NCBI RefSeq assembly: GCF_030384885.1
Contig: NZ_CP128613.1
Source of the DNA: Escherichia coli
Lineage (GTDB): Bacteria; Pseudomonadota; Gammaproteobacteria; Enterobacterales; Enterobacteriaceae
Reading direction: 5' to 3' (one strand)
Length of the DNA stretch: 64,000 nt
Shown: in pieces, positions 10,928-30,477 of the stretch
Numbering within the stretch: the first letter of the stretch is position 1
Layout: the number at the start of each line of letters is the position of its first letter
Program-made: the position numbers and the translations under genes
The notes under the pieces: generated by a model
What the model was told of the DNA's origin: nothing
The model's database searches: none
What the model saw: the letters and a program-made list of their open reading frames with translations, nothing else

Positions 10928-11314
10928 ATGAGCAAAACTATCGCGACGGAAAATGCACCGGCAGCTATCGGTCCTTACGTACAGGGCGTTGATCTGGGCA
11001 ATATGATCATCACCTCCGGTCAGATCCCGGTAAATCCGAAAACGGGCGAAGTACCGGCAGACGTCGCTGCACAGGCACGTCAGTCGCTGGATAACGTAAA
11101 AGCGATCGTCGAAGCCGCTGGCCTGAAAGTGGGCGATATCGTTAAAACCACCGTGTTTGTGAAAGATCTGAACGACTTCGCAACCGTAAACGCTACCTAC
11201 GAAGCGTTCTTCACCGAGCACAATGCCACCTTCCCGGCACGTTCTTGCGTTGAAGTTGCCCGTCTGCCGAAAGACGTGAAGATTGAGATCGAAGCGATCG
11301 CTGTTCGTCGCTAA
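10928..11314 (+). CDS. ridA: Enamine/imine deaminase RidA (YjgF)
   Basis: 128 aa MSKTIATENAPAAIGPYVQG...; RBS AAGGAG upstream of ATG 10928. Confidence 0.93.
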   Translation: MSKTIATENAPAAIGPYVQGVDLGNMIITSGQIPVNPKTGEVPADVAAQARQSLDNVKAIVEAAGLKVGDIVKTTVFVKDLNDFATVNATYEAFFTEHNATFPARSCVEVARLPKDVKIEIEAIAVRR

Positions 11315-11380
11315 TCTCTTTCAAAAAGATAATCCAGGTTTCGCGCCTGGATTATCTGATTCAACCACGGAGGGTTGAAG

Positions 11381-11836
11381 ATGGCTAAATCCCGTTTCAC
11401 AGATAAGCAAATTGCTGAAATTTTACAGCGGTCAAAAGAGGGGGCATCTAATAAGGAGCTTTGTGAACACTATCAATTTAGCGTTAACACGCTGCGGCGC
11501 TGGCAAGAACAGCACGCTGACGGCATCAGAAGCGAATTAAAAAAAATAGAATCTAAAGCACAGATCGTCTTTCTGCTTTTCATTGCTATTGTCATTATAC
11601 TCACGCTTATATTTGGTAAACCTACAGGTGGATGGGCAATACCGCCTTTATTACTCTATTGTGTTTATTATATCCGCCTGTATCGCAACATCTCCGCCAG
11701 ACATATAAAAAAAGAAGACATTTTTCTCTCTCGTTCTGTTAATAACAGCTATAGCGCCCTTTATAATTTGAGCTGGACGTTTATTTGTTTTTTTATTTTT
11801 GCAGTAATCTATTTTTTTATTCAGGTGTTTTCGTAA
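11381..11836 (+). CDS. Hypothetical protein: N-terminal transposase-like HTH fused to a two-helix membrane segment
   Basis: ATG 11381 with GGAGGG RBS; N-terminus (FTDKQIAEIL...LCEHYQFSVNTLRRWQ) resembles IS3-family OrfA HTH, C-terminus hydrophobic; AT-rich. Confidence 0.5.
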   Translation: MAKSRFTDKQIAEILQRSKEGASNKELCEHYQFSVNTLRRWQEQHADGIRSELKKIESKAQIVFLLFIAIVIILTLIFGKPTGGWAIPPLLLYCVYYIRLYRNISARHIKKEDIFLSRSVNNSYSALYNLSWTFICFFIFAVIYFFIQVFS

Positions 11837-11880
11837 CAGACTGACCTGAAAGAGTATTTCAGGCCAGCTTCATCACTTGC

Positions 11881-14577
11881 TTACTGCCAGCCGTAACGAC
11901 GGCTATAGAACCCTTTCACCAACTGGGTTAACGTCATATACCCTGCCAGAATCGCAACCAGCCACGGGAAATAGCTTAACGGCAGCGCCTGCAGTTGCAG
12001 ATAACTGGCCAACGGCGAAAACGGCAATGCGATCCCGACTATCATCACAATCACGGTCATGATCATTAACGGCCACGATGCACAGCTCTGAATAAACGGT
12101 ACACGACGGGTACGGATCATATGCACAATCAGCGTTTGCGACAGTAATCCCACCACAAACCAGCCCGACTGGAACAGCGTTTGCGTTTCCGGCGTGTTGG
12201 CATGGAATACCCACCACATCAGGCAAAACGTCAGAATATCGAAGATCGAACTGATCGGTCCGAAGAAGATCATAAAGCGCCCCAAATCCGCCGGATTCCA
12301 ACGCTGAGGCTTTTGAACTTGCTCGTCGTCGACGTTATCAAACGGGATCGCCACCTGTGACACATCGTACAGCAGGTTCTGGATCAGTAAGTGTAAAGGC
12401 AGCATCGGCAGGAAGGGCAAGAAAGCACTCGCCACCAGCACGCTGAACACATTACCGAAGTTAGAACTCGCCGTCATTTTGATGTATTTCAGCATGTTGG
12501 CGAAAGTGCGACGTCCCTCAATAACCCCCTCCTCCAGCACCATCAGGCTTTTTTCCAGCAGGATGATATCAGCCGCTTCACGGGCAATATCTACCGCGCC
12601 GTCCACAGAAATGCCGATATCCGCAGCGCGTAAGGCGGGAGCATCATTAATACCATCGCCCATAAAGCCAACCACATGCCCTTCGCGCTTTAGCAAGGTC
12701 ACGATGCGTTCTTTATGCATCGGCGTCAGGCGAGCAAACAGCGTGGTGCGCTGTGCAAGATTTGCCAGTTCGTCGTCAGATAGCGTTTCAATATCACTAC
12801 CAATGACCACCTCTCCCGCGTCCAGTCCCACTTCATGGCACACTTTCGCCGCCACTAACTCGCTGTCGCCAGTAAGGATTTTCACGGTAATGCCACTCGC
12901 TTTTAATGCCTTCAGTGCCGGAGCTGTTGTCTCTTTCGGCGGATCAAGGAAAGCAATATATCCTTCGAGGATCAGGTCGGATTCATCCGCCCGCTGGTAA
13001 TCCCCTTCACGTGCTGGCAGGTATTTCGTCGCCACCGCAACCACGCGCAGCCCCTGACGATTCAGCGTATCAGTAACCCGCTTAATCTTACGCAGTATGA
13101 TGTCATCAAGCGGCACAATCTCACCATTGTGACGCACCTGCGAACACACATTGAGGATTTCCTGCAATGCGCCTTTGCAAACCAGTTGATGATGTTCGGT
13201 ATTCTCTGCCACTACCACCGACATCCGGCGACGCTCGAAATCAAACGGAATCTCATCAATTTTTTGCCAACGACTGGCCAGCGAGCGCGCTGACTCTTCA
13301 TCCGTACCTTCGAGCACCGCTGTATCAAGCAGGTTTTTAAGTCCGGTCTGATAATGACTGTTCAACCACGCGCTATGCAGCACCCGTTCGCTGGTTTTAC
13401 CGGAGATATCGGTATGATTCTCCAGCACAATTTTATCCTGCGTCAGGGTGCCGGTTTTATCAGTGCACAGAATATCCATAGCGCCAAAGTTCTGAATGGC
13501 ATCCAGATGTTTGACGATCACTTTCTGTTTCGACAGCTTTACGGCACCACGCGCCAGCGTCGAAGTGACAATCATCGGCAACATTTCTGGCGTTAAGCCT
13601 ACCGCGACCGAAAGTGCGAACAGTGCCGCTTCCCACCAGTCACCTTTGGTGTAACCGTTGATCAGCAACACCACCGGAGCCATCACCAGCATAAAGCGAA
13701 TCAGCAGCATACTGACGCGGCTAATCCCTTGCTGAAAGGCATTCGGCTCGCTTTCCTGCTCACTAACACGCCCCGCCAGTTGACCAAACCAGGTGTTGGC
13801 TCCTGTAGCAATCACCATTGCTTGTGCCGTGCCGCTCACCACGGTGGTACCCATAAAACACAGGGTGTCGCACTCCAGCGGATTGCTGTGCTCCGGCTGG
13901 CGAGTGGTAGCAGCTTTTTCCACGGGCAGAGACTCACCGGTTAACGACGCCTGAGCGACAAACAGATCCCGCGCCTGCAAGATACGTAAATCTGCCGGGA
14001 TCATATCCCCCGCCGCCAGTTTTATAATATCGCCGGGCACTAGTTGGTCTATCGGAATTTCCAGCCAGCCATTTTCACCTTTATCGTTAATTACGCGCAG
14101 TACCGTCGCGGTATTACTGACCATCGCTTTCAGGGCATCTGCCGCTTTGGTGGAACGAGCTTCCTGAATAAAGTTCAGCAACGTAGAAATAGCGACCATT
14201 AGCGCGATAACACCTGCGGCAAATAAATCTTCCGTGGCGTAAGAAATAGCACCGAGAATGGTGAGCAAAATATTAAAGGGGTTGCGATAGCAGACCCATA
14301 AATGTACCCACCACGGCGACGGTTGTTGCGCGGGTAATTTATTTTCACCATGTTGTTCGCGGGCAGATTCCACTTCCGCCTGATTTAACCCTTCCGGATG
14401 GGTATTGAACGTTTTCCATAATTCCTGTTCTGGCATCACCGCCATTTTCAGGCAATGCGCACTTAAGGACGGCGGGACCGCCGTATTCACTGTCTGCTGC
14501 GCGCCAGGCAATGGATCGCGATGAACCAGACGGGAAGGTAAATGGCGAATGAGCCGGGTAAAAATTTCTTTAAACAT
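11881..14577 (-). CDS. mgtA: Magnesium-transporting P-type ATPase
   Basis: 898-aa ORF with P-type ATPase motifs (DKTGTLT, TGDxxxxA, GDGINDAPAL). Confidence 0.97.
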   Translation of the reverse strand: MFKEIFTRLIRHLPSRLVHRDPLPGAQQTVNTAVPPSLSAHCLKMAVMPEQELWKTFNTHPEGLNQAEVESAREQHGENKLPAQQPSPWWVHLWVCYRNPFNILLTILGAISYATEDLFAAGVIALMVAISTLLNFIQEARSTKAADALKAMVSNTATVLRVINDKGENGWLEIPIDQLVPGDIIKLAAGDMIPADLRILQARDLFVAQASLTGESLPVEKAATTRQPEHSNPLECDTLCFMGTTVVSGTAQAMVIATGANTWFGQLAGRVSEQESEPNAFQQGISRVSMLLIRFMLVMAPVVLLINGYTKGDWWEAALFALSVAVGLTPEMLPMIVTSTLARGAVKLSKQKVIVKHLDAIQNFGAMDILCTDKTGTLTQDKIVLENHTDISGKTSERVLHSAWLNSHYQTGLKNLLDTAVLEGTDEESARSLASRWQKIDEIPFDFERRRMSVVVAENTEHHQLVCKGALQEILNVCSQVRHNGEIVPLDDIILRKIKRVTDTLNRQGLRVVAVATKYLPAREGDYQRADESDLILEGYIAFLDPPKETTAPALKALKASGITVKILTGDSELVAAKVCHEVGLDAGEVVIGSDIETLSDDELANLAQRTTLFARLTPMHKERIVTLLKREGHVVGFMGDGINDAPALRAADIGISVDGAVDIAREAADIILLEKSLMVLEEGVIEGRRTFANMLKYIKMTASSNFGNVFSVLVASAFLPFLPMLPLHLLIQNLLYDVSQVAIPFDNVDDEQVQKPQRWNPADLGRFMIFFGPISSIFDILTFCLMWWVFHANTPETQTLFQSGWFVVGLLSQTLIVHMIRTRRVPFIQSCASWPLMIMTVIVMIVGIALPFSPLASYLQLQALPLSYFPWLVAILAGYMTLTQLVKGFYSRRYGWQ

Positions 14578-14717
14578 AAGGAGTCCCTCCGCACTGACTG
14601 AAACAGTGCAGAAATGTCTTCAGGCGTGGCGAAGCCTTACCTGAAGGTAATAAAGCTGAGCTGGGACGTTAAAACGTCACGGCCTTACGCATCCGGTAAC
14701 GCCGTGAAAAGACGGGC
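14578..14717 (-). promoter_or_regulatory. mgtA 5-prime leader (Mg2+/proline-responsive attenuator region) between mgtL and mgtA
   Basis: Position between the mgtL stop and the mgtA start; established leader architecture. Confidence 0.7.
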
Positions 14718-14771
14718 TTACCGGAAAAGTTTTAATCTCCGTCGAGGGAGAGGCGTGGGATCAGGTTCCAT
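14718..14771 (-). CDS. mgtL: mgtA leader peptide
   Basis: 17-codon proline-rich [20 protein letters not shown] upstream of mgtA. Confidence 0.82.
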
Positions 14772-14864
14772 ATAACCTCCGATAAGTGAAAAAAGCGCCG
14801 CAAATAATAAGGAGAATCCAATAATATTCGTGGCATTTATGGCGATATAATACCTACTGGCAAC

Positions 14865-14881
14865 TAAACCAACGATAAACC
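14865..14881 (-). promoter_or_regulatory. PhoP box of the mgtLA promoter
   Basis: On the minus strand GGTTTA-tcgtt-GGTTTA (direct hexamer repeat, 5-bp spacer) with a TATTAT -10 element just downstream. Confidence 0.7.
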
Positions 14882-14953
14882 AGACTTTACCCATTGCTGA
14901 ATGCACGGGTAAAGTTAGGCTCAAATAATGAAACGCAATTACGGGACAACAGG

Positions 14954-15901
14954 ATGCAAAATCGGCTGACCATCAAAGACATCGCGCGCTTAAGCGGCGT
15001 GGGGAAATCTACGGTTTCCCGAGTGCTGAATAACGAAAGCGGCGTGAGTCAGCGCACGCGCGAGCGCGTGGAAGCAGTGATGAATCAGCATGGATTTTCC
15101 CCTTCCCGCTCCGCGCGCGCTATGCGTGGGCAAAGCGATAAAGTGGTCGCCATCATTGTTACCCGTCTGGATTCGTTGTCAGAAAATCTCGCCGTCCAAA
15201 CCATGCTGCCAGCGTTCTATGAACAAGGTTACGACCCGATCATGATGGAAAGTCAGTTTTCTCCGCAATTAGTTGCCGAACATTTGGGGGTGCTGAAACG
15301 GCGTAATATCGACGGCGTAGTGCTGTTCGGTTTTACCGGCATAACCGAAGACATGTTAGCCCACTGGCAGTCATCGCTGGTTCTGCTGGCGCGTGACGCA
15401 AAAGGCTTTGCTTCGGTCTGTTATGACGACGAAGGGGCAATCAAGATCCTGATGCAACGGCTGTATGACCAGGGGCATCGTAATATCAGTTATCTCGGCG
15501 TACCGCACAGTGACGTGACGACCGGTAAGCGACGTCACGAAGCCTACCTGGCGTACTGCAAAGCGCATAAACTTCATCCCGTCGCCGCCCTGCCAGGCCT
15601 TGCGATGAAGCAAGGCTATGAGAATGTCGCAAAAGTGATTACCCCTGAAACCACCGCGTTACTGTGCGCAACCGACACGCTGGCACTTGGCGCAAGTAAA
15701 TACTTGCAAGAGCAACGCATCGACACCTTGCAACTGGCGAGCGTCGGTAATACACCGTTAATGAAATTCCTCCATCCGGAGATCGTCACCGTTGACCCAG
15801 GTTACGCCGAAGCCGGACGCCAGGCGGCCAGCCAGTTAATTGCGCAGGTAACCGGGCGCAGCGAACCGCAACAAATCATCATCCCTGCCACCCTATCCTG
15901 A
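14954..15901 (+). CDS. treR: Trehalose operon repressor (LacI family)
   Basis: 315 aa from MQNRLTIKDIARLSGVGKSTVSRVLN... (HTH_LacI) followed by a periplasmic-binding-like domain. Confidence 0.93.
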   Translation: MQNRLTIKDIARLSGVGKSTVSRVLNNESGVSQRTRERVEAVMNQHGFSPSRSARAMRGQSDKVVAIIVTRLDSLSENLAVQTMLPAFYEQGYDPIMMESQFSPQLVAEHLGVLKRRNIDGVVLFGFTGITEDMLAHWQSSLVLLARDAKGFASVCYDDEGAIKILMQRLYDQGHRNISYLGVPHSDVTTGKRRHEAYLAYCKAHKLHPVAALPGLAMKQGYENVAKVITPETTALLCATDTLALGASKYLQEQRIDTLQLASVGNTPLMKFLHPEIVTVDPGYAEAGRQAASQLIAQVTGRSEPQQIIIPATLS

Positions 15902-15940
15902 TCGTTTCCTGAACGATAAATTGTGATCTTCGCTGCGTTT

Positions 15941-15954
15941 CGGGAACGTTCCCG
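15941..15954. promoter_or_regulatory. Candidate TreR operator in the treB promoter
   Basis: Perfect 14-bp palindrome CGGGAACGTTCCCG about 65 bp upstream of treB; a second palindrome ATCGTT-N5-AACGAT at 15901-15917. Confidence 0.6.
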
Positions 15955-16019
15955 TTTTTAAATTTTTCCGCGCACTATATTCTGCAGCCAACCAAAAATG
16001 TCATCTGCCATGGGGCTTT

Positions 16020-17441
16020 ATGATGAGCAAAATAAACCAAACGGATATCAATCGGTTGATTGAACTGGTCGGCGGTCGCGGCAATATTGCGACGGTGAGC
16101 CACTGTATTACTCGCCTGCGCTTTGTCCTCAACCAACCGGCCAATGCCAGACCGAAAGAGATTGAGCAACTCCCCATGGTGAAAGGCTGTTTCACCAATG
16201 CCGGGCAATTTCAGGTGGTAATTGGCACCAACGTGGGTGATTACTATCAAGCGCTGATAGCGACGACCGGACAGGCGCAGGTTGATAAAGAGCAGGTGAA
16301 AAAAGCTGCCCGGCAGAATATGAAATGGCATGAGCAGTTGATCTCTCATTTCGCGGAGATCTTCTTCCCGCTGCTGCCCGCGTTGATTAGTGGTGGTTTG
16401 ATCCTCGGTTTTCGCAATGTGATCGGCGATTTGCCCATGAGCAACGGTCAAACGCTGGCGCAAATGTACCCTTCCCTGCAAACGATCTACGATTTTCTAT
16501 GGTTGATCGGTGAAGCGATCTTCTTCTACCTGCCGGTCGGAATTTGCTGGTCAGCGGTGAAAAAAATGGGCGGCACGCCGATCCTCGGTATCGTGCTTGG
16601 CGTGACGCTGGTTTCCCCACAGTTGATGAACGCTTATCTGCTCGGGCAGCAGCTACCGGAAGTATGGAACTTTGGCATGTTCAGCATCGCCAAAGTGGGC
16701 TATCAGGCACAGGTTATTCCGGCACTGTTAGCCGGGCTGGCGCTGGGCGTGATAGAAACTCGCCTTAAGCGTATCGTGCCGGATTATCTCTATCTGGTGG
16801 TGGTGCCGGTCTGTTCGCTGATCCTCACGGTGTTCCTCGCCCATGCGCTGATTGGTCCGTTTGGTCGCATGATTGGCGATGGCGTTGCCTTTGCGGTGCG
16901 TCACCTGATGACCGGCAGCTTTGCCCCCATTGGTGCGGCATTGTTTGGCTTCCTTTACGCACCGCTGGTGATCACCGGCGTACACCAGACCACGCTTGCT
17001 ATAGATTTGCAGATGATTCAAAGCATGGGTGGCACGCCAGTGTGGCCGCTTATTGCGCTGTCGAATATCGCTCAGGGCTCCGCCGTGATAGGCATTATCA
17101 TTTCCAGCCGCAAGAGCAATGAACGCGAGATCTCCGTGCCTGCCGCTATCTCCGCCTGGCTTGGGGTCACTGAGCCTGCAATGTACGGCATCAACCTGAA
17201 ATATCGCTTCCCGATGCTGTGCGCGATGATTGGTTCTGGTCTGGCAGGATTACTATGCGGTCTGAACGGCGTTATGGCGAATGGCATCGGCGTAGGCGGC
17301 CTGCCGGGAATTCTCTCTATTCAACCGAGCTACTGGCAAGTGTTTGCGCTGGCAATGGCTATCGCCATCATCATCCCGATTGTACTCACCTCGTTTATCT
17401 ACCAGCGGAAATACCGCCTGGGTACGCTGGACATTGTTTAA
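16020..17441 (+). CDS. treB: PTS trehalose-specific EIIBC component
   Basis: 473-aa ORF MMSKINQTDI...; EIIB cysteine motif (SHCITRLR) and multi-pass EIIC domain. Confidence 0.95.
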   Translation: MMSKINQTDINRLIELVGGRGNIATVSHCITRLRFVLNQPANARPKEIEQLPMVKGCFTNAGQFQVVIGTNVGDYYQALIATTGQAQVDKEQVKKAARQNMKWHEQLISHFAEIFFPLLPALISGGLILGFRNVIGDLPMSNGQTLAQMYPSLQTIYDFLWLIGEAIFFYLPVGICWSAVKKMGGTPILGIVLGVTLVSPQLMNAYLLGQQLPEVWNFGMFSIAKVGYQAQVIPALLAGLALGVIETRLKRIVPDYLYLVVVPVCSLILTVFLAHALIGPFGRMIGDGVAFAVRHLMTGSFAPIGAALFGFLYAPLVITGVHQTTLAIDLQMIQSMGGTPVWPLIALSNIAQGSAVIGIIISSRKSNEREISVPAAISAWLGVTEPAMYGINLKYRFPMLCAMIGSGLAGLLCGLNGVMANGIGVGGLPGILSIQPSYWQVFALAMAIAIIIPIVLTSFIYQRKYRLGTLDIV

Positions 17442-17490
17442 TTTTCTTCGGGGCGCAATTGCGCCCCCTCGTATTTGCAGGAATAACGTA

Positions 17491-19146
17491 ATGACGAATC
17501 TTCCCCACTGGTGGCAAAACGGCGTTATCTACCAGATTTATCCCAAGAGTTTTCAGGACACCACGGGCAGCGGTACCGGCGATTTACGTGGCGTTATCCA
17601 ACGCCTGGACTATCTGCATCAACTGGGCGTCGATGCTATCTGGCTAACCCCCTTTTATGTCTCTCCCCAGGTCGATAACGGATACGACGTAGCGAACTAT
17701 ACGGCGATAGATCCCACTTACGGTACGCTGGACGATTTTGACGAAATGGTGACGCAGGCGAAATCACGCGGCATTCGTATCATTCTCGATATGGTGTTTA
17801 ATCATACTTCTACCCAACATGCCTGGTTTCGCGAGGCGCTGAGCAAAGAAAGCCCTTACCGTCAGTTTTATATCTGGCGCGATGGTGAACCAGAAACGCC
17901 ACCGAATAACTGGCGTTCAAAATTTGGCGGTAGTGCGTGGCGCTGGCATGCGGAAAGCGAACAGTACTATTTGCATCTCTTTGCACCAGAACAGGCGGAT
18001 CTCAACTGGGAGAATTCGGCGGTACGCGCCGAGCTGAAAAAAGTCTGTGAGTTCTGGGCCGATCGCGGGGTCGACGGGTTGCGCCTGGATGTGGTGAATC
18101 TGATCTCCAAAGACCCGCGTTTCCCTGAAGACCTGGATGGCGACGGACGTCGCTTCTACACCGACGGGCCACGAGCACACGAGTTTTTGCACGAGATGAA
18201 CCGCGATGTGTTTACGCCTCGCGGGTTAATGACCGTGGGTGAAATGTCCTCCACTAGCCTTGAGCATTGCCAGCGATACGCGGCTCTGACAGGCAGTGAA
18301 TTGTCGATGACCTTTAATTTTCATCACCTGAAGGTCGATTATCCCGGTGGTGAAAAATGGACGCTGGCTAAACCTGACTTTGTGGCGTTGAAAGCATTGT
18401 TCCGCCACTGGCAACAAGGAATGCACAACGTGGCATGGAATGCCTTGTTCTGGTGTAACCACGATCAGCCGCGCATTGTTTCTCGTTTTGGTGATGAAGG
18501 GGACTACCGCGAACCTGCGGCAAAAATGCTGGCGATGGTGCTGCATGGCATGCAGGGAACGCCATATATCTATCAGGGCGAAGAGATTGGCATGACTAAT
18601 CCACATTTCACGCGCATTACTGACTATCGCGACGTGGAGAGCCTCAATATGTTTGCCGAACTGCGCAACGATGGGCGTGACGCCGACGAGTTATTGGCAA
18701 TCCTCGCCAGTAAATCCCGTGACAATAGTCGCACGCCAATGCAATGGAGCAACGGCGATAATGCCGGGTTTACAACGGGTGAACCGTGGATTGGCCTGGG
18801 CGATAACTATCAAGAAATCAACGTAGAAGCTGCGCTGGCCGATGAGTCCTCGGTGTTTTACACCTACCAAAAGTTAATCGCACTGCGTAAGCAAGAAGCC
18901 GTCCTGACATGGGGCAATTACCAGGATCTGCTGCCAGACAGCCCTGTATTGTGGTGCTATCGCCGTGAATGGAAGGGGCAAACCTTGCTGGTCATTGCCA
19001 ACCTTAGCCGTGAGATCCAACCCTGGCAGCCAGGGCAAATGCGCGGAAACTGGCAGCTTGTGATGCATAACTACGAAGAAGCCTCAGCACAACCCTGTGC
19101 CATGACTTTACGGCCTTTTGAGGCCGTCTGGTGGTTACAGAAGTAA
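17491..19146 (+). CDS. treC: Trehalose-6-phosphate hydrolase
   Basis: 551 aa from MTNLPHWWQNGVIYQIYPKSF...; GH13 alpha-amylase family motifs. Confidence 0.95.
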   Translation: MTNLPHWWQNGVIYQIYPKSFQDTTGSGTGDLRGVIQRLDYLHQLGVDAIWLTPFYVSPQVDNGYDVANYTAIDPTYGTLDDFDEMVTQAKSRGIRIILDMVFNHTSTQHAWFREALSKESPYRQFYIWRDGEPETPPNNWRSKFGGSAWRWHAESEQYYLHLFAPEQADLNWENSAVRAELKKVCEFWADRGVDGLRLDVVNLISKDPRFPEDLDGDGRRFYTDGPRAHEFLHEMNRDVFTPRGLMTVGEMSSTSLEHCQRYAALTGSELSMTFNFHHLKVDYPGGEKWTLAKPDFVALKALFRHWQQGMHNVAWNALFWCNHDQPRIVSRFGDEGDYREPAAKMLAMVLHGMQGTPYIYQGEEIGMTNPHFTRITDYRDVESLNMFAELRNDGRDADELLAILASKSRDNSRTPMQWSNGDNAGFTTGEPWIGLGDNYQEINVEAALADESSVFYTYQKLIALRKQEAVLTWGNYQDLLPDSPVLWCYRREWKGQTLLVIANLSREIQPWQPGQMRGNWQLVMHNYEEASAQPCAMTLRPFEAVWWLQK

Positions 19147-19158
19147 GTATCCGCTAAG

Positions 19159-19190
19159 CCCCGGTAATACTGGTCATTCCGGGGTTTTGC
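19159..19190 (+). terminator. Intrinsic terminator after treC
   Basis: ccccgg...ccgggg hairpin followed by TTTTG. Confidence 0.75.
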
Positions 19191-19290
19191 CTTTCAGTAT
19201 GTTGTTTTTGTTGATTTTATAATCAAAAAATTCATTAAAAAATTTACATAACGCTGTAGCGCCCGTCATCCGTACGCTCTGCTTTTTACT

Positions 19291-19304
19291 TTGAGCTACA
19301 TCAA
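19291..19304. promoter_or_regulatory. Candidate FNR site upstream of nrdD
   Basis: TTGAG-ctac-ATCAA, one mismatch from the FNR consensus TTGAT-N4-ATCAA. Confidence 0.5.
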
Positions 19305-19329
19305 AAAAAGTTCAAACATCCTTGATGCA

Positions 19330-19380
19330 AAGCACTATATATAGACTTTAAAATGCGCCCCGACCCAATATGTTGTATTA
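19330..19380. promoter_or_regulatory. Candidate tandem NrdR boxes in the nrdDG promoter
   Basis: Two AT-rich palindromic boxes (gcactatatatagac and cccaatatgttgtat) spaced about 32 bp apart. Confidence 0.5.
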
Positions 19381-19539
19381 ATCGACTATAATTGCTACTA
19401 CAGCTCCCCACGAAAAAGGTGCGGCGTTGTGGATAAGCGGATGGCGATTGCGGAAAGCACCGGAAAACGAAACGAAAAAACCGGAAAACGCCTTTCCCAA
19501 TTTCTGTGGATAACCTGTTCTTAAAAATATGGAGCGATC

Positions 19540-21678
19540 ATGACACCGCATGTGATGAAACGAGACGGCTGCAAAGTGCCGTTTAAATCAGAGCGCATCA
19601 AAGAAGCGATTCTGCGTGCAGCTAAAGCAGCGGAAGTCGATGATGCAGATTATTGCGCCACTGTTGCCGCGGTTGTCAGCGAGCAGATGCAGGGCCGCAG
19701 CCAGGTGGATATCAACGAGATCCAGACCGCCGTTGAAAACCAGCTGATGTCGGGTCCATACAAACAACTGGCTCGTGCTTACATCGAGTACCGTCACGAT
19801 CGCGATATTGAACGTGAAAAACGCGGTCGCCTGAATCAGGAGATCCGTGGTCTGGTCGAGCAGACCAACGCCTCGTTGCTCAACGAAAACGCCAACAAAG
19901 ACAGCAAGGTGATTCCAACCCAGCGCGACCTGCTGGCCGGGATTGTGGCTAAACACTATGCACGTCAGCACCTGCTGCCGCGTGACGTGGTGCAGGCGCA
20001 TGAGCGTGGCGATATTCACTATCACGATCTCGATTACTCGCCGTTCTTCCCGATGTTCAACTGCATGTTGATCGACCTGAAAGGTATGCTGACCCAGGGC
20101 TTTAAGATGGGTAACGCCGAGATTGAACCACCGAAGTCGATCTCTACGGCAACCGCGGTAACAGCGCAGATTATTGCTCAGGTCGCCAGTCATATTTATG
20201 GCGGCACCACCATTAACCGTATCGATGAAGTGCTGGCACCGTTTGTCACCGCCAGCTACAACAAACACCGCAAGACCGCAGAAGAGTGGAACATCCCGGA
20301 CGCCGAAGGTTACGCTAACTCTCGTACCATCAAAGAGTGCTACGATGCCTTCCAGTCGCTGGAGTACGAAGTAAACACCCTGCACACCGCCAACGGTCAA
20401 ACACCGTTTGTGACCTTTGGTTTTGGTCTGGGCACCAGCTGGGAGTCTCGCCTGATTCAGGAGTCTATCCTGCGTAACCGTATCGCGGGCCTCGGTAAAA
20501 ACCGTAAAACTGCGGTGTTCCCGAAACTGGTGTTTGCGATTCGCGATGGCCTGAACCATAAAAAAGGCGATCCGAACTACGACATCAAACAGCTGGCGCT
20601 GGAGTGCGCAAGCAAGCGCATGTATCCAGATATCCTGAACTACGATCAGGTAGTGAAAGTCACCGGTTCGTTTAAAACCCCGATGGGCTGCCGCAGCTTC
20701 CTCGGCGTGTGGGAAAATGAAAACGGCGAACAGATCCACGATGGTCGTAACAACCTCGGCGTGATCAGCCTGAACCTGCCGCGCATTGCGCTGGAAGCGA
20801 AAGGCGATGAGGCCACCTTCTGGAAGCTGCTGGATGAACGTCTGGTGCTGGCACGTAAGGCGCTGATGACCCGTATCGCTCGTCTCGAAGGCGTTAAAGC
20901 GCGCGTGGCCCCGATCCTCTATATGGAAGGTGCTTGTGGCGTTCGTCTGAATGCTGACGACGACGTTTCTGAAATCTTCAAAAACGGTCGTGCGTCTATT
21001 TCGCTGGGTTACATCGGCATCCACGAAACCATTAACGCGCTGTTTGGCGGCGAGCATGTGTATGACAACGAGCAGCTGCGCGCGAAAGGTATCGCCATTG
21101 TTGAACGTCTGCGTCAGGCGGTGGATCAGTGGAAAGAAGAAACGGGTTACGGTTTTAGCCTTTACAGCACGCCAAGTGAAAACCTGTGCGACCGCTTCTG
21201 CCGTCTCGATACCGCGGAGTTTGGCGTGGTGCCGGGCGTGACTGATAAAGGTTACTACACCAACAGTTTCCACCTCGATGTGGAGAAGAAGGTGAACCCG
21301 TACGACAAGATCGACTTTGAAGCGCCTTACCCGCCGCTGGCGAACGGTGGCTTCATTTGCTACGGCGAATATCCAAACATTCAGCACAACCTGAAGGCGC
21401 TGGAAGATGTCTGGGATTACAGCTATCAGCATGTACCGTATTACGGCACCAATACGCCGATTGATGAGTGTTACGAGTGTGGTTTTACCGGTGAGTTTGA
21501 GTGCACCAGTAAAGGCTTCACCTGCCCGAAATGTGGTAACCATGACGCCTCCCGTGTGTCGGTGACTCGCCGCGTGTGCGGATATTTAGGTAGCCCGGAT
21601 GCGCGTCCGTTTAACGCTGGTAAGCAGGAAGAAGTTAAGCGCCGCGTTAAACATTTGGGAAATGGGCAGATCGGTTAA
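19540..21678 (+). CDS. nrdD: Anaerobic ribonucleoside-triphosphate reductase
   Basis: 712-aa ORF with N-terminal ATP-cone and C-terminal glycyl-radical region and zinc cysteines (CYECGF...CPKCG). Confidence 0.97.
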   Translation: MTPHVMKRDGCKVPFKSERIKEAILRAAKAAEVDDADYCATVAAVVSEQMQGRSQVDINEIQTAVENQLMSGPYKQLARAYIEYRHDRDIEREKRGRLNQEIRGLVEQTNASLLNENANKDSKVIPTQRDLLAGIVAKHYARQHLLPRDVVQAHERGDIHYHDLDYSPFFPMFNCMLIDLKGMLTQGFKMGNAEIEPPKSISTATAVTAQIIAQVASHIYGGTTINRIDEVLAPFVTASYNKHRKTAEEWNIPDAEGYANSRTIKECYDAFQSLEYEVNTLHTANGQTPFVTFGFGLGTSWESRLIQESILRNRIAGLGKNRKTAVFPKLVFAIRDGLNHKKGDPNYDIKQLALECASKRMYPDILNYDQVVKVTGSFKTPMGCRSFLGVWENENGEQIHDGRNNLGVISLNLPRIALEAKGDEATFWKLLDERLVLARKALMTRIARLEGVKARVAPILYMEGACGVRLNADDDVSEIFKNGRASISLGYIGIHETINALFGGEHVYDNEQLRAKGIAIVERLRQAVDQWKEETGYGFSLYSTPSENLCDRFCRLDTAEFGVVPGVTDKGYYTNSFHLDVEKKVNPYDKIDFEAPYPPLANGGFICYGEYPNIQHNLKALEDVWDYSYQHVPYYGTNTPIDECYECGFTGEFECTSKGFTCPKCGNHDASRVSVTRRVCGYLGSPDARPFNAGKQEEVKRRVKHLGNGQIG

Positions 21679-21699
21679 TCTTCACTCTGCGCTAAGCAA

Positions 21700-21832
21700 A
21701 TGCCGGATGTGGCGTAAACGCCTTATCCGGCCTACATTTGGCAACGGCTGTAGGCCTGATAAGACGCAACAGCGTCGCATCAGGCGTTGATTGCCTGATA
21801 CCGCCTACACGCGGACTGATAAGCCAGGCGAA
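21700..21832. repeat. BIME/REP cluster between nrdD and nrdG
   Basis: Multiple REP units (gccggatgtggcgtaaacgccttatccggcctaca..., taggcctgataagacgc...gcgtcgcatcaggc). Confidence 0.85.
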
Positions 21833-21835
21833 ATA

Positions 21836-22300
21836 ATGAATTATCATCAGTACTATCCTGTCGACATCGTCAACGGCCCCGGCACTCGCTGCACCCTGTT
21901 TGTCTCCGGGTGTGTTCATGAATGCCCCGGTTGCTATAACAAAAGCACCTGGCGGGTAAATTCCGGTCAGCCATTTACCAAAGCAATGGAAGACCAGATC
22001 ATTAACGATCTGAATGACACCCGCATCAAACGCCAGGGTATTTCCCTCTCCGGCGGCGATCCGCTGCATCCGCAAAACGTGCCGGATATTCTAAAACTGG
22101 TACAACGCATCCGCGCCGAATGTCCGGGTAAAGACATCTGGGTGTGGACAGGCTATAAATTCGACGAACTCAACGCTGCGCAAATGCAGGTTGTTGATTT
22201 GATTAACGTGCTGGTCGACGGCAAATTTATGCAGGATCTAAAAGACCCTTCCCTGATCTGGCGCGGCAGCAGCAATCAGGTGGTGCATCATTTGCGTTAG
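21836..22300 (+). CDS. nrdG: Anaerobic ribonucleotide reductase activating protein (radical SAM)
   Basis: 154 aa from MNYHQYYPVDIVNGPGTRC... with the CxxxCxxC radical-SAM cluster motif. Confidence 0.93.
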   Translation: MNYHQYYPVDIVNGPGTRCTLFVSGCVHECPGCYNKSTWRVNSGQPFTKAMEDQIINDLNDTRIKRQGISLSGGDPLHPQNVPDILKLVQRIRAECPGKDIWVWTGYKFDELNAAQMQVVDLINVLVDGKFMQDLKDPSLIWRGSSNQVVHHLR

Positions 22301-22540
22301 TCACTCATCCAGCCGGACCTTAATGGCCTCCTGTGGGTTGGCCAGTCGTTCCCTGACAGTGCGTAACAAGGCTTCTTCACTATCACTGACAGTGAGCGTT
22401 TTTACCGGCATTCGTCCATTTTCCGCAACGTACTGAAACAGCAGCCGCACTGCTTCAGTAGGCGTGATATTTAATTTTTCCAGCACCGCATAAGCCTCAT
22501 TTTTCAGTTTGTCATCCAGGCGGACGTTAAGTGTGGCCAT
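22301..22540 (-). CDS. RelB/DinJ-family ribbon-helix-helix antitoxin-like protein (no adjacent toxin gene)
   Basis: 79 aa; MATLNVRLDDKLKNEAYAVLEKL...TPTEAVRLLFQYVAENGRMP closely parallels RelB; GGAGG RBS; convergent with nrdG. Confidence 0.6.
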   Translation of the reverse strand: MATLNVRLDDKLKNEAYAVLEKLNITPTEAVRLLFQYVAENGRMPVKTLTVSDSEEALLRTVRERLANPQEAIKVRLDE

Positions 22541-22559
22541 TATGCCTCCGGTAATTATG

Positions 22560-22600
22560 AAAAGTGTAATGCATTATAGCATTACATATGCATTACATTC
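22560..22600 (-). promoter_or_regulatory. Promoter with repeated palindromic operator upstream of the RelB-like gene
   Basis: Minus-strand reading ATGTAATGCATATGTAATGCTATAATGCATTACA: direct and inverted copies of TGTAATGCA overlapping a TATAAT -10. Confidence 0.6.
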
Positions 22601-22696
22601 ATTTCTGGAAAACGCCTCGCAAAAATGAGGACGACACGCAGGAATATGCGGTAGTGAAGATAGATATTGCGGTGATTTTTCGAAGGGGAAGAAAGC

Positions 22697-22727
22697 GTTG
22701 GGCGGTAACGTTTCACCGCCCAATAAG
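22697..22727 (-). terminator. Probable terminator downstream of cybC
   Basis: ttgggcggtgaaacgttaccgcccaa stem-loop just after the cybC stop. Confidence 0.55.
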
Positions 22728-22730
22728 GAA

Positions 22731-23120
<390 letters not shown>

Positions 23121-23169
23121 TCACTTCCTTTTTCTTATTAAGATTTGGCGCGGCAGGTCGCGCCTTTTT

Positions 23170-24522
23170 TTACTGCCCGGCGATTTTCATCTCCGGCAAC
23201 AGCACAGAACCACACTGTATATTGCTGCGTGTTTCAATATCGTTACCGACGGTGACAATATTGCGCCACATATCTTTTAAATTACCTGCGATGGTGATTT
23301 CGCTAACCGGATACTGAATTTCGCCATTCTCTACCCAGAAGCCCGCAGCACCACGGGAATAATCACCGGTAATGGCACTCACTCCCTGGCCCATCAGTTC
23401 CGTCACCACCAGCCCGGTGCCCATCTCTTTGAGCATTTGTTCGAAGCTTAGCCCTTGCCCGGCAATTCGCCAATTATGAATACCGCCTGCATGTCCGGTG
23501 CTTTTCAGCCCCAGTTTACGTGCGGAATAGCTGGTCAGCAGCCACTGGGTCAGAATGCCATCTTTAATAATATCGCGACGCTCGGTGCGCACACCTTCGC
23601 TGTCGAATGGCGTCGATGCCAGCCCTTTCAGCAGATGCGGATGCTCTTCAATGGTCAGCCAATCCGGTAGAATTTGTTTACCCAGCGAATCCAGCAGGAA
23701 GGTGGATTTACGGTAGACCGATCCACCCGCTATCGCCCCAACCAGATGGCCAAAAAGCCCGGTTGCCACTTCATTGGCAAAAATTACCGGCGCTTTCATG
23801 GTGGAAAGTTTACGCGGTGACAGGCGCGATAAAGTACGGCGAGCACAGTCGGCCCCGACCCACTCTGGCGTTTGCAGATCGCTCATCGCGCGACCAATGG
23901 TGTAGGCGTAATCACGCTCCATATCGCCATTTTCTTCGGCAATTACGCAGCTTGAGAGTGAATGACGCGTTGAGCAATAACCCTGCAACATGCCGTGGCT
24001 GTTGCCAAAAACTTTTACGCCGTAGTGGCTGTTAAAACTGCCGCCTTCGGTATTGGTGATGCGTTTATCCGCCTGTAATGCTGCCTGTTCTGCGCGAGCC
24101 GCCAGTTCAATAGCTTCATCCGGGGAAACTTCCGCAGGGTGAAACAAGTCGAGATCCGGCGCGTCAAAGGCCAGCAGCTCTTTGTCTGCCACGCCGGCAC
24201 AGGGATCTGGCGAAGTGTAACGAGCAATATCCAGCGCTGCCTGTACGGTGCGGGCAATGGCCTGCGGGCTTAAATCGGTAGACGATGCGCTACCTTTACG
24301 GTTCTGGTGATAAACAGTGATCCCCAGCGCGCCATCGCTATTGAATTCGACATTCTCCACTTCGCCATATCGCGTGCTAACGCTAATGCCGGTGGTCTTG
24401 CTGACGGCAACTTCCGCACCGTCCGATTTGCCTGAGGCCAACTCCAGCGCAGTGGAAACTGCTTCTTCCAGAATCTTGCGCTGCGCTTCAACTTGAGAGA
24501 TTACTTTCATTGCAAGTGCCAT
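23170..24522 (-). CDS. pmbA: Metalloprotease PmbA/TldE
   Basis: 450-aa [23 protein letters not shown]... (PmbA/TldD fold). Confidence 0.95.
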
Positions 24523-24615
24523 AATGTAGAGAGTTTCTCTGAAGTCTAACAGAGAACCGTTTTTCAGTGCGCATCTTAACTGGTAACATTAGCCTCTTTT
24601 TTTAAGGAGCCTGAG

Positions 24616-25167
24616 ATGACTAAGCAGCCCGAAGACTGGCTCGACGACGTTCCCGGTGATGACATCGAAGACGAAGACGATGAAATTATCTGGGTCAGTA
24701 AAAGTGAAATTAAACGCGATGCCGAGGAGCTAAAACGCCTTGGCGCAGAAATTGTTGATCTGGGGAAAAACGCGCTGGATAAGATCCCGTTAGACGCGGA
24801 TCTGCGTGCGGCTATCGAGTTAGCCCAGCGTATTAAGATGGAAGGTCGCCGCCGCCAGTTGCAGCTCATCGGTAAGATGCTGCGCCAGCGCGACGTAGAA
24901 CCGATCCGTCAGGCGCTGGATAAGCTGAAAAACCGCCACAACCAGCAAGTGGTGTTGTTCCATAAACTGGAAAACCTGCGCGATCGTCTGATCGAGCAAG
25001 GTGATGACGCCATCGCTGAAGTATTGAATCTGTGGCCCGATGCCGATCGTCAGCAACTGCGAACTCTGATCCGCAACGCGAAGAAAGAGAAAGAAGGGAA
25101 TAAGCCGCCGAAATCCGCGCGCCAGATTTTCCAGTATCTGCGTGAGTTAGCGGAAAACGAAGGGTAA
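24616..25167 (+). CDS. yjgA: Ribosome-associated protein YjgA (DUF615)
   Basis: 183-aa charged protein [16 protein letters not shown]... Confidence 0.9.
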
Positions 25168-25191
25168 TTTTCGTTGTTGATGTGAGTATGG

Positions 25192-25312
25192 TTTGCCGGA
25201 TGCGGTGCACCTGTAGGCCTGATAAGACGCATCAAGCGTCGCATCAGGCACTATGCTCAAATGCCGGATGCGGCGTGAACGCCTTATCCGGCCTACACAC
25301 ACTATATCAGGC
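25192..25312. repeat. BIME/REP cluster between yjgA and mpl
   Basis: gccggatgcggtgcacctgtaggcctgataagacgc...atgccggatgcggcgtgaacgccttatccggcctaca. Confidence 0.85.
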
Positions 25313-25322
25313 TGAGGCCGAA

Positions 25323-26696
25323 TTACTGCGCGGCTTCCGCTTTCTTCGCTAGCCCATCCAGCAGTTTCTGATGAATTCCACCAAAACCGCCGTTGCTCAT
25401 CACCAGAATATGGTCGCCAGGCTGAGCGGTTTTCACCACCATATCTGCCAGTGTATCCACATCGCCACTCCAGTGTGCAGGCTGAACGCAGGCTTCTGCC
25501 ACTTCTGCGACCTGCCAAGGAATATGCGCCGGTTGCAGCAGGAAGACTTCATCGGCACGACCTAATGAAGGTGCCAAATCGTCTTTGCAGATCCCCATTT
25601 TCATGGTGTTTGAGCGCGGTTCCAGCACGGCAATAATGCGCGCCGTACCGCCAACTTTGCCGCGCAGCGCAGCCAGCGTTGCCAGAATCGCCGTCGGGTG
25701 ATGGGCAAAATCGTCATACACCGTCACGCCATTTGCTTCTCCGCGCAACTCCAGACGACGACGAGCGTTAATAAACGAACCCAGCGCGTTAGCAGCATCT
25801 GCCGGCGCTACGCCAACATGACGGGCCGCCGCAATCGCCATCAGGCCGTTGTGCATATTATGTTCGCCCACCAGCGACCATTTCACTTCGCCCACTTTTT
25901 CGCCATCCAGCAAGACTTCCCATTCGGAAGCGTCAGTGGTCAGCTTTTTCGCCTGCCAGTGCCCCTGCTCGCCCACCAGCTCCTGCTCGCTCCAGCAGCC
26001 CATCGCCATGGTTTGTTTCAGGTTGATGTCGTTTTCCGGCCAGATAATACGCCCCTGCCCCGGAACGATACGCACCAGATGGTGGAACTGTTTCTGGATC
26101 GCTTTCAGGTCGTCAAAGATATCGGCATGATCGAACTCAAGGTTGTTGAGGATCAGCGTACGCGGGCAGTAATGGACAAATTTAGAGCGTTTGTCGAAGA
26201 AGGCGCAGTCATACTCATCCGCTTCGATAACAAAGAAGTCGCTTTCGCCTAAACGTGCCGAAACGTCAAAGTTCCCCGGAACACCGCCGATCACAAAACC
26301 CGGTTTATAGCCACACTGTTCCAGAATCCAGGTCGCCATTCCCGCGGTGGTGGTTTTGCCGTGTGTACCGGCAACGGCCAACACCCAGCGGTCACGCAGC
26401 ACAAAATCGTGCAGCCACTGCGGGCCAGACATATAAGGGATGTTTTTTTCCAGTACCACTTCCACACACGGATTTCCACGGGTCATGGCGTTGCCAATGA
26501 TCACCAGATCCGGCTGCGGGTCGAGCTGGCTGGCATCGTAACCCTGAATCAGTTCAATGCCTTGCTTCTCAAGTAAGGTGCTCATCGGCGGATACACATT
26601 GGCGTCCGAACCCGTTACTTCATGGCCTAACTGGCGCGCCAGCATCGCCAGACCGCCCATAAATGTGCCACAAATTCCTAAAATATGAATGCGCAT
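25323..26696 (-). CDS. mpl: UDP-N-acetylmuramate:L-alanyl-gamma-D-glutamyl-meso-DAP ligase
   Basis: 457-aa Mur ligase family ORF (MRIHILGICGTFMGGLA...). Confidence 0.95.
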   Translation of the reverse strand: MRIHILGICGTFMGGLAMLARQLGHEVTGSDANVYPPMSTLLEKQGIELIQGYDASQLDPQPDLVIIGNAMTRGNPCVEVVLEKNIPYMSGPQWLHDFVLRDRWVLAVAGTHGKTTTAGMATWILEQCGYKPGFVIGGVPGNFDVSARLGESDFFVIEADEYDCAFFDKRSKFVHYCPRTLILNNLEFDHADIFDDLKAIQKQFHHLVRIVPGQGRIIWPENDINLKQTMAMGCWSEQELVGEQGHWQAKKLTTDASEWEVLLDGEKVGEVKWSLVGEHNMHNGLMAIAAARHVGVAPADAANALGSFINARRRLELRGEANGVTVYDDFAHHPTAILATLAALRGKVGGTARIIAVLEPRSNTMKMGICKDDLAPSLGRADEVFLLQPAHIPWQVAEVAEACVQPAHWSGDVDTLADMVVKTAQPGDHILVMSNGGFGGIHQKLLDGLAKKAEAAQ

Positions 26697-26871
26697 ACGT
26701 CACTATCCTTTTTTAATCTGCCGCTCATTTTACGCATATGTCGGGCAAGTGAGAAACGCATTTCAGGATAATCCGTAATTTGCTGGCGCGATTCACCTGA
26801 GCGCAACATTGAGATTATTTGTTAAGATTGTTGCGGTCGCTTTACTCCATAAACATTGCAGGGAAAGTTTT

Positions 26872-27870
26872 ATGAAAACGTTAGGTGAATTTATTGTCGA
26901 AAAGCAGCACGAGTTTTCTCATGCTACCGGTGAGCTCACTGCTTTGCTGTCGGCAATAAAACTGGGCGCCAAGATTATCCATCGCGATATCAACAAAGCA
27001 GGACTGGTTGATATCCTGGGTGCCAGCGGTGCTGAGAACGTGCAGGGCGAGGTTCAGCAGAAACTCGACTTGTTCGCTAATGAAAAACTGAAAGCCGCAC
27101 TGAAAGCACGCGATATCGTTGCGGGCATTGCCTCTGAAGAAGAAGATGAGATTGTCGTCTTTGAAGGCTGTGAACACGCAAAATACGTGGTGCTGATGGA
27201 CCCACTGGATGGCTCGTCCAACATCGATGTTAACGTCTCTGTCGGTACCATTTTCTCCATTTACCGCCGTGTTACCCCTGTCGGTACGCCGGTAACGGAA
27301 GAAGACTTCCTCCAGCCTGGTAACAAACAGGTTGCGGCAGGTTACGTGGTATACGGCTCCTCTACCATGTTGGTTTACACCACCGGATGCGGTGTTCACG
27401 CCTTTACTTACGATCCTTCGCTTGGCGTTTTCTGCCTGTGCCAGGAACGGATGCGCTTCCCGGAGAAAGGCAAAACCTACTCCATCAACGAAGGGAACTA
27501 CATTAAGTTTCCAAACGGGGTGAAGAAGTACATTAAATTCTGTCAGGAAGAAGATAAGTCCACCAACCGTCCATATACCTCACGTTATATCGGTTCACTG
27601 GTCGCAGATTTCCACCGTAACCTGCTGAAAGGTGGGATTTATCTCTACCCAAGCACCGCCAGCCACCCGGACGGTAAACTGCGTTTACTGTATGAGTGCA
27701 ACCCGATGGCGTTCCTCGCGGAACAAGCGGGCGGTAAAGCGAGCGATGGCAAAGAGCGTATTCTGGATATCATCCCGGAAACCCTGCACCAGCGTCGTTC
27801 GTTCTTTGTCGGCAATGACCATATGGTTGAAGATGTCGAACGCTTTATCCGTGAGTTCCCGGACGCGTAA
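26872..27870 (+). CDS. fbp: Fructose-1,6-bisphosphatase class 1
   Basis: 332 aa from [15 protein letters not shown]...; FBPase motifs. Confidence 0.96.
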
Positions 27871-27879
27871 ATGAGTTAA

Positions 27880-27905
27880 CGCCGGAGCAGTCCGGCGTTT
27901 TCAAT
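27880..27905 (+). terminator. Intrinsic terminator after fbp
   Basis: acgccggagcagtccggcgt hairpin followed by TTTTC. Confidence 0.75.
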
Positions 27906-27907
27906 TA

Positions 27908-28423
27908 TCAATTAACAAAGGTTAATTTGACTCGTTTAGATACGCAAAAATAGGGGATCCAGATTGCAAGATGGATGATACTTTTCAGAAGCTCCCATGC
28001 ATCTGTCAATTCAAATGAGGCATTAAGAAAGTGCATTGTCCCCCAAATATCAGCCACAATGAATGCAAACAGTGACAGAAGAAGGGCAATATAATACTGT
28101 GGAAGCTGGCGTTTTTTGTTAAAAAACAAATAAGTAGTATAAATCAACAGCAGAAACAAAACGGCAAATCCGGCGGTTTCCAGATAAAGTGCCGTCCTGA
28201 GCGGTTCTTCGTAAATTACGCGAGTAAGCCCCCAAGTATGGATAATTGAATACGCGTTCGCAAGAATACCAAGCACTAAACCAATTGCCGGCAGAAATAG
28301 CCAGCCGCCAATCCCTGTAAGCTTTTTATCCGCACAACTTTTACAATAATCGTCAGGTGGTAAAACAGCCACACCACAGTTTTTACATGTTGTTTGTAAT
28401 TCTTCGCCGTCCTTCACCCACAT
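27908..28423 (-). CDS. Hypothetical zinc-ribbon membrane protein
   Basis: 171-aa ORF: N-terminal CxxC-N10-CxxC (CKNCGVAVLPPDDYCKSC) followed by about four hydrophobic helices; AT-rich (roughly 42 percent GC). Confidence 0.5.
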   Translation of the reverse strand: MWVKDGEELQTTCKNCGVAVLPPDDYCKSCADKKLTGIGGWLFLPAIGLVLGILANAYSIIHTWGLTRVIYEEPLRTALYLETAGFAVLFLLLIYTTYLFFNKKRQLPQYYIALLLSLFAFIVADIWGTMHFLNASFELTDAWELLKSIIHLAIWIPYFCVSKRVKLTFVN

Positions 28424-28450
28424 AAAAATATCCTTATATATCAGTAAAAT

Positions 28451-30464: not shown

Positions 30465-30477
30465 CACACAGTTCTCC

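Follow-up and report, generated by a model that had tools for sequence, protein, structure and literature searches.

A PhoP-box promoter, the mgtL leader ORF and a Mg2+-responsive leader RNA upstream of mgtA in an Escherichia coli genome

The regulatory module described here lies on the minus strand of the window (the whole 64,000-nucleotide stretch of E. coli DNA that was analysed), upstream of a minus-strand ORF of 898 amino acids that starts at an ATG at 14577 and runs to 11881. The strand is a correction to the original prediction, which had proposed a complete mgtA control module here, made up of a PhoP box, the leader ORF mgtL and a leader RNA. The product of the 898-aa ORF, MgtA, matches the magnesium-translocating P-type ATPase family TIGR01524 with 1602.3 bits (cut-off 610.75). 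A divergent plus-strand ORF encodes TreR (TIGR02405, 589 bits) and is followed by ORFs of the sizes of treB and treC, an arrangement of treR-treB-treC divergent from mgtA that has the same synteny as K-12. In K-12 MG1655, mgtL (b4702, 4467431..4467484) and mgtA (b4242, from 4467625) stand in the same gene order, again with treR divergent. The gene, promoter and leader features of the locus are:

11881 to 14577, minus strand: mgtA coding sequence, 898 aa, a Mg2+-importing P-type ATPase (ORF list and TIGR01524)
14865 to 14881, minus strand: PhoP box, the direct repeat GGTTTA-TCGTT-GGTTTA (GGTTTATCGTTGGTTTA), read directly and occupying the usual -35 position
14847 to 14852, minus strand: -10 hexamer TATTAT, 12 nt downstream of the PhoP box
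14578 to 14840, minus strand: mgtA leader RNA, about 263 nt, with a predicted start
14671 to 14786, minus strand: Mg2+-responsive leader element RF01056, with stem-loops A and B (Rfam cmscan)
14776 to 14780, minus strand: mgtL Shine-Dalgarno GGAGG, read directly, 5 nt upstream of the ATG and within the stem A 5' arm
14718 to 14771, minus strand: mgtL leader ORF, ATG at 14771, 17 codons, stop TAA at 14720..14718
14718 to 14924, minus strand: mechanical 68-aa ORF with a TTG start, whose last 17 codons are mgtL; not a gene

A 421-nt query spanning the region recovered the module region in 5,425 of 5,426 complete E. coli genomes. Across positions 1..34960 the window is 99.983% identical (6 substitutions, no indels) to E. 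coli 2013C-4282 (NZ_CP027579.1), which was isolated from human stool in the USA; in the mgtA-treR intergenic region, most other E. coli are only 95-99% identical.

Further features lie at both ends of the locus. Between ridA and mgtA, adjoining the 3' end of mgtA, is an orphan mobile-element fragment: a 153-aa plus-strand ORF (11375..11836; Pfam HTH_Tnp_1, 36 bits; PGAP label 'transposase') on a segment found in 442 of the 5,426 complete E. coli genomes and absent from K-12. At the other end, PGAP starts treR of the near-identical strain 2013C-4282 at an upstream TTG, giving 335 aa (window 14894..14953, plus strand). In K-12 the curated start corresponds to the ATG at 14954 and yields a protein of 315 aa, in which the TIGR02405 profile sets in at residue 4; the 335-aa call is probably an over-extension. 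The start of this longer form lies on the strand opposite to mgtA, 13 nt upstream of the PhoP box. Elsewhere in the window, Rfam matches above the gathering score comprised the ES239 sRNA (45844..45966, minus strand, 149 bits), STnc450 (41189..41246, plus strand, 77 bits) and two naRNA4/CssrE REP-derived elements (25216..25293 and 32004..32080, both minus strand, with 86 and 64 bits).

The promoter has the geometry described for PhoP-activated genes. Its direct repeat, proposed from the outset as GGTTTA-N5-GGTTTA, is the sole exact match to KGTTTA-N5-KGTTTA on either strand of the 64 kb, where by our own arithmetic about 0.03 matches would be expected by chance; with one mismatch permitted there are four matches, against 1.1 expected. 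The spacer between the box and the -10 hexamer (GTTGCCAGTAGG) is exactly 12 nt long. Box and hexamer are kept in E. albertii, S. enterica subsp. diarizonae, Enterobacter and strain RIT691, with the hexamer reading TATTAT, TATGAT or TATCAT in the homologues. Among PhoP-activated promoters, that of mgtA has been classed as 'architecture I', in which a single direct PhoP box, separated by 12 nt from the -10 downstream of it, overlaps with the -35 position and serves as a class II site (PMC3335776). The window has each of these hallmarks: the (T/G)GTTTA-N5-(T/G)GTTTA repeat, a single direct box and the 12-nt spacing.

A consensus scan of 14500..15000 detected no sigma-70 consensus promoter, as expected for an activator-dependent promoter, because the activator site takes the place of the -35 element. 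Transcription is predicted to start at about 14840. In the proposed first layer of control, low external Mg2+ would be sensed by PhoQ, and phosphorylated PhoP would then bind the direct repeat in the place of the -35 element and activate transcription.

Within the predicted transcript, mgtL encodes a peptide with prolines at positions 3, 5, 7 and 9 and acidic residues near its N terminus; alternating prolines and N-terminal acidic residues are a described feature of MgtL (PMC6460261, PMC11552253). The Pfam family MGTL (PF17059) matches it with 36.1 bits (cut-off 25) over profile positions 1-17 of 17, at residues 52-68 of the 68-aa ORF, and both its DNA and its peptide are identical to K-12 b4702. 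The mgtL Shine-Dalgarno is invariant in an alignment of seven sequences (described below). From the literature on homologues, translation of mgtL would be expected to control mgtA expression. Between the mgtL stop and the mgtA ATG lies a spacer of exactly 140 nt (14717..14578), equal in length to the K-12 spacer (4467485..4467624), and the mgtA Shine-Dalgarno GGAGGG is at 14590..14585 on the minus strand. The proline-rich 17-codon mgtL and the 140-nt spacer of the original prediction are thus present as proposed.

The leader RNA that it had also called is supported as well. With cmscan, Rfam family RF01056 matches over model positions 1-115 of 115 with 122.2 bits (gathering score 40; E = 1.6e-25), and it is the only Rfam family match in the neighbourhood of the mgtA leader. 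A distance of 93 nt separates the element (14786..14671) from the mgtA ATG downstream. At about 263 nt, the leader is close in length to the 264-nt mgtA leader of Salmonella (PMC6460261), and the whole of it has a predicted folding energy of -88.7 kcal/mol (z = -4.61 against 200 shuffles). Its structural elements are:

14779 to 14786, minus strand: stem A 5' arm CUUAUCGG, which pairs with 14724..14717 (Rfam structure line)
14717 to 14724, minus strand: shared switch segment CCGGUAAG, which is both the stem A 3' arm and the stem C 5' arm and holds the mgtL stop UAA
14678 to 14706, minus strand: stem-loop B, ten pairs, 100% of cells paired, three pairs with compensatory changes
14693 to 14699, minus strand: stem C 3' partner UUACCGG, inside the 5' arm of stem-loop B
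14619 to 14645, minus strand: distal-leader hairpin of the minimum-energy fold, 98.3% of cells paired, two compensatory pairs
14589 to 14611, minus strand: hairpin of the minimum-energy fold adjoining the mgtA Shine-Dalgarno, 92.9% of cells paired, three compensatory pairs
14782, minus strand (plus-strand A): private C-to-U substitution in the stem A 5' arm, changing a C-G pair to U-G (alignments)

The Rfam structure and ViennaRNA agree on stem A, in which CUUAUCGG(AGG) at 14786..14779 pairs with CCGGUAAG. This stem encloses most of mgtL and includes the mgtL Shine-Dalgarno and stop codon. In the published model, stem-loop B serves as the attenuator (PMC6460261). In the alternative stem C, CCGGUAA pairs instead with UUACCGG at 14699..14693, a pairing that excludes both stem A and stem-loop B. 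The mutually exclusive arrangement of RF01056, stem-loops A and B versus stem C, is therefore found in the window. In the K-12-like allele, the ViennaRNA energies of folds forced into A or into C differ by 0.1 to 1.8 kcal/mol; such near-equal predicted energies of A+B and C would be expected of a switch.

We assessed conservation of these pairings in seven sequences (the window, two E. coli, E. albertii, Salmonella, RIT691 and Enterobacter), all of which match RF01056 (87-127 bits). A search of genome contigs with a pattern of 15 specified bases (ATGGANCCTGANCCCAC) gave at least 120 matches, mostly in unrelated bacteria, with five usable enterobacterial loci among the matches listed. Divergence that breaks the leader stems was not seen across the seven sequences: 93.4% of the cells of stems A and B are paired, compared with at most 45.5% in slid controls, and all seven pairs of stem C are 100% paired, compared with at most 43%, figures that come from only seven sequences and from structures derived from the window sequence. 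Stem A (helix 1) is paired in 96.8% of cells, and CCGGUAAG is invariant in seven of seven sequences. Stems A and C hardly vary, as would be expected where two pairings and a reading frame constrain the same bases, so that this near-invariance is uninformative for or against pairing.

Two further hairpins in the distal leader fall outside the Rfam model and are conserved across genera. Together they are 95.7% paired in the seven sequences, and five of their pairs change on both sides. The 3' arm of the hairpin at 14589..14611 extends to the first two G of the mgtA Shine-Dalgarno, and this hairpin may affect initiation of mgtA translation or pausing.

That these elements are present, where they lie, which families they belong to and how well their pairings are conserved are all direct observations. 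The matches to RF01056, Pfam MGTL and TIGR01524, together with the synteny, the distribution, the geometry of the PhoP box and the conservation of pairing, identify the locus almost certainly as the canonical two-layer control region of E. coli mgtA, and we found no evidence that contradicts this identification.

Comparison with characterized relatives places the module within this well-known system. Aligned with the K-12 leader, the window has an identical PhoP box, -10 hexamer, mgtL (DNA and peptide) and spacer length, and differs within the leader by only a handful of substitutions, that at 14782 among them. The Salmonella enterica mgtA leader has the same RF01056 match, alternative pairings and promoter architecture as the window, and its mgtL likewise has 17 codons with prolines at positions 3, 5, 7 and 9. 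Its stem B differs from that of the window through compensatory changes, and the MgtL peptide of S. diarizonae differs at several residues. The corA leader with corL, in E. coli and Salmonella, is analogous in having A/B (off) and C/D (on) states, an upstream ORF inside stem-loop A and Rho-linked attenuation (PMC11552253). Unlike the mgtA leader, however, it is transcribed from a constitutive promoter that lacks a PhoP box, its upstream ORF is a different one with fewer prolines, and it precedes a different gene; it is absent from the window interval.

By analogy with the published mgtL and leader switch (PMC11552253, PMC6460261, PMC12360218), the second layer would be a leader of about 263 nt that folds in two mutually exclusive ways and so controls elongation into mgtA. 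Pairing of CCGGUAAG with the upstream CUUAUCGG would form stem A and allow stem-loop B, giving the off state, whereas pairing of CCGGUAAG with UUACCGG would form stem C and destroy stem-loop B, giving the on state. The choice of fold would be set by cytoplasmic Mg2+ and by how smoothly mgtL, rich in proline and acidic residues, is translated. At high Mg2+, efficient translation of mgtL would lead to the A/B state and, through stem-loop B, to premature termination. When Mg2+, proline or EF-P is low, the ribosome would stall on, or fall off, the start of mgtL with its Pro and Asp/Glu codons, and this stalling or destabilization would allow stem C to form and transcription to read through into mgtA. 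The Mg2+-dependent change in conformation and expression is known from the Salmonella and K-12 homologues (PMC11552253). PhoP binding, responsiveness to Mg2+ and proline, and the termination step would likewise be expected here from published work on Salmonella and E. coli K-12.

A scan of 14500..15000 found no terminator-like site of the intrinsic kind, which, together with the pyrimidine-rich flanks of stem-loop B, is consistent with factor-dependent termination. C/G ratios in 40-nt windows around mgtL and downstream of stem-loop B reach only 1.5 to 2.1, values that are suggestive but not diagnostic of a rut site. Rho dependence of mgtA attenuation has been demonstrated in Salmonella but is contested for E. 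coli (PMC5499598, PMC7815308), and a recent review notes that the Rho mechanism is possibly not conserved (PMC12360218). Mapping of 3' ends lists mgtA among the 5' UTRs with 3' ends at known regulation sites (PMC7815308).

Whether Mg2+ is sensed by the RNA directly or through translation of mgtL is debated in the literature (PMC11552253). In the original Salmonella model, the leader is chiefly a riboswitch that binds Mg2+ directly and exposes a rut site for Rho, with mgtL translation secondary; this model appears in the text accompanying Figure 7A of PMC5499598 and in PMC12360218. Rfam curates RF01056 as the aptamer of a magnesium riboswitch. The pyrimidine-rich segments on either side of stem-loop B (GCCCGUCUUUUCAC upstream; 14680..14611 downstream, C/G 1.5 to 1.7) and the lack of an intrinsic terminator in 14500..15000 also fit such a reading. 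However, recent work credits most of the Mg2+ response to the efficiency of mgtL translation (PMC11552253, PMC12360218), and the E. coli mgtA leader had a termination score of 1.0 in a ChIP assay with the Rho R66S mutant (PMC5499598). Sequence analysis does not separate the two modes. We regard a chiefly RNA-based sensor as possible but somewhat doubtful, and prefer the switch set by mgtL translation together with cytoplasmic Mg2+.

The module had been described as intact throughout. Every part is indeed present, but stem A carries one substitution that is private to the window. Position 14782 is C in K-12, 2013C-4282, another E. coli, E. albertii, Salmonella, RIT691 and Enterobacter, and U in the window. 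A 61-mer query with the SNP near one end (megablast requires a 28-base word) matched 5,424 E. coli genomes, and none of these 5,424 held an identical copy with U at 14782. Because a U-G wobble is retained, stem A is not disrupted.

In silico, the change weakens stem A by a ddG of 2.6 kcal/mol. For the full leader, ViennaRNA shifts the A-forced minus C-forced energy from -1.8 to +0.8 kcal/mol, with the mean predicted pair probability falling from 0.93 to 0.17 for stem A and rising from 0.07 to 0.81 for stem C. The substitution could therefore, on these models, alter the set-point of the switch in the window strain.

Three other window-private changes bear mention. At 12318, in codon 754 of mgtA, the window encodes V754, where K-12, SCPM-O-B-8794 and 2013C-4282 have I754, and a 61-mer at this position had an identical copy in none of 4,767 matched genomes. 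Two more private transitions, shared with no matched E. coli genome, are at 17472, between treB and treC and 19 nt ahead of the treC start, and at 27543, in fbp.

These changes raise the idea that the mgtA switch of this strain has been functionally shifted, with 14782 C-to-U biasing the leader to stem C, so that mgtA would be partly de-repressed at high Mg2+, perhaps selected together with MgtA I754V. In its favour are the C found in 5,424 of 5,424 matched E. coli genomes and in E. albertii, Salmonella, Enterobacter and RIT691, the predicted move of the ensemble from stem A to stem C, and the fact that the 3-kb mgtA locus holds two of the four SNPs private to the window in 35 kb (binomial p ~0.04, post hoc). 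Several points weigh against it. A G-U wobble preserves the pair, and even with it the leader scores 122 bits in Rfam. Equilibrium energies are of limited help for a switch that operates during transcription and is coupled to translation. Stem A also sequesters the mgtL Shine-Dalgarno, and a weaker stem could raise mgtL translation, with the opposite effect. The I754V change is conservative, a single base could be a sequencing error, and the clustering test is both post hoc and marginal; for this last reason we do not take the concentration of private SNPs in mgtA to indicate selection.

We therefore consider a functional shift improbable. Slimmer still, in our estimate, is the chance that 14782 C-to-U is a real, natural set-point mutation favouring the read-through fold and that it reflects, with MgtA I754V, lineage-specific selection on Mg2+ import. 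Our preferred description is of the canonical mgtA control region, with the altered pair of stem A kept as a wobble.

The original prediction had pointed out that the ORF track fuses mgtL into a 68-aa frame, which is the TTG-started ORF listed above, and had expected automated annotation to mis-call mgtL as a result. The fusion is real, but the expectation applies only to a naive longest-ORF caller: PGAP labels the gene correctly, and all RefSeq entries among the matches listed carry the feature 'mgtL: mgtA regulatory leader peptide MgtL'. That the 68-aa ORF is instead a real small hydrophobic protein, with mgtL merely its C terminus, is hardly credible despite an unbroken frame, a TTG start, an internal ATG and a hydrophobic N-terminal part: both its start and its internal ATG precede the PhoP box, the -10 hexamer and the predicted transcription start, so that the mgtA transcript cannot encode it; its only family match is Pfam MGTL at residues 52-68, with no NCBIfam match to the ORF and none in NCBIfam or Pfam to its N-terminal 51 residues; its upstream part overlaps promoter DNA and its frame is not conserved, being broken in E. 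albertii by a 2-nt insertion that leaves mgtL untouched and diverging with indels in other genera; and in the curated K-12 annotation, as in PGAP, mgtL has 17 aa. We rejected it as a gene on the position of its start, its unmatched N-terminal part and the broken frame in E. albertii.

The module is an ordinary representative of a known system, that of the mgtA leader, mgtL and the PhoP promoter, and has been annotated before. As the mgtA leader is among the best-characterized bacterial leader and attenuator systems, and its RefSeq annotation is already correct, the locus has little discovery value. Its practical worth is as a positive control, in that a reader given only the sequence recovered a three-part regulatory module with exact coordinates. 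If the C-to-U change at 14782 is real, it would be a single-base variant, supplied by nature, with which to probe how finely stems A and C are balanced.
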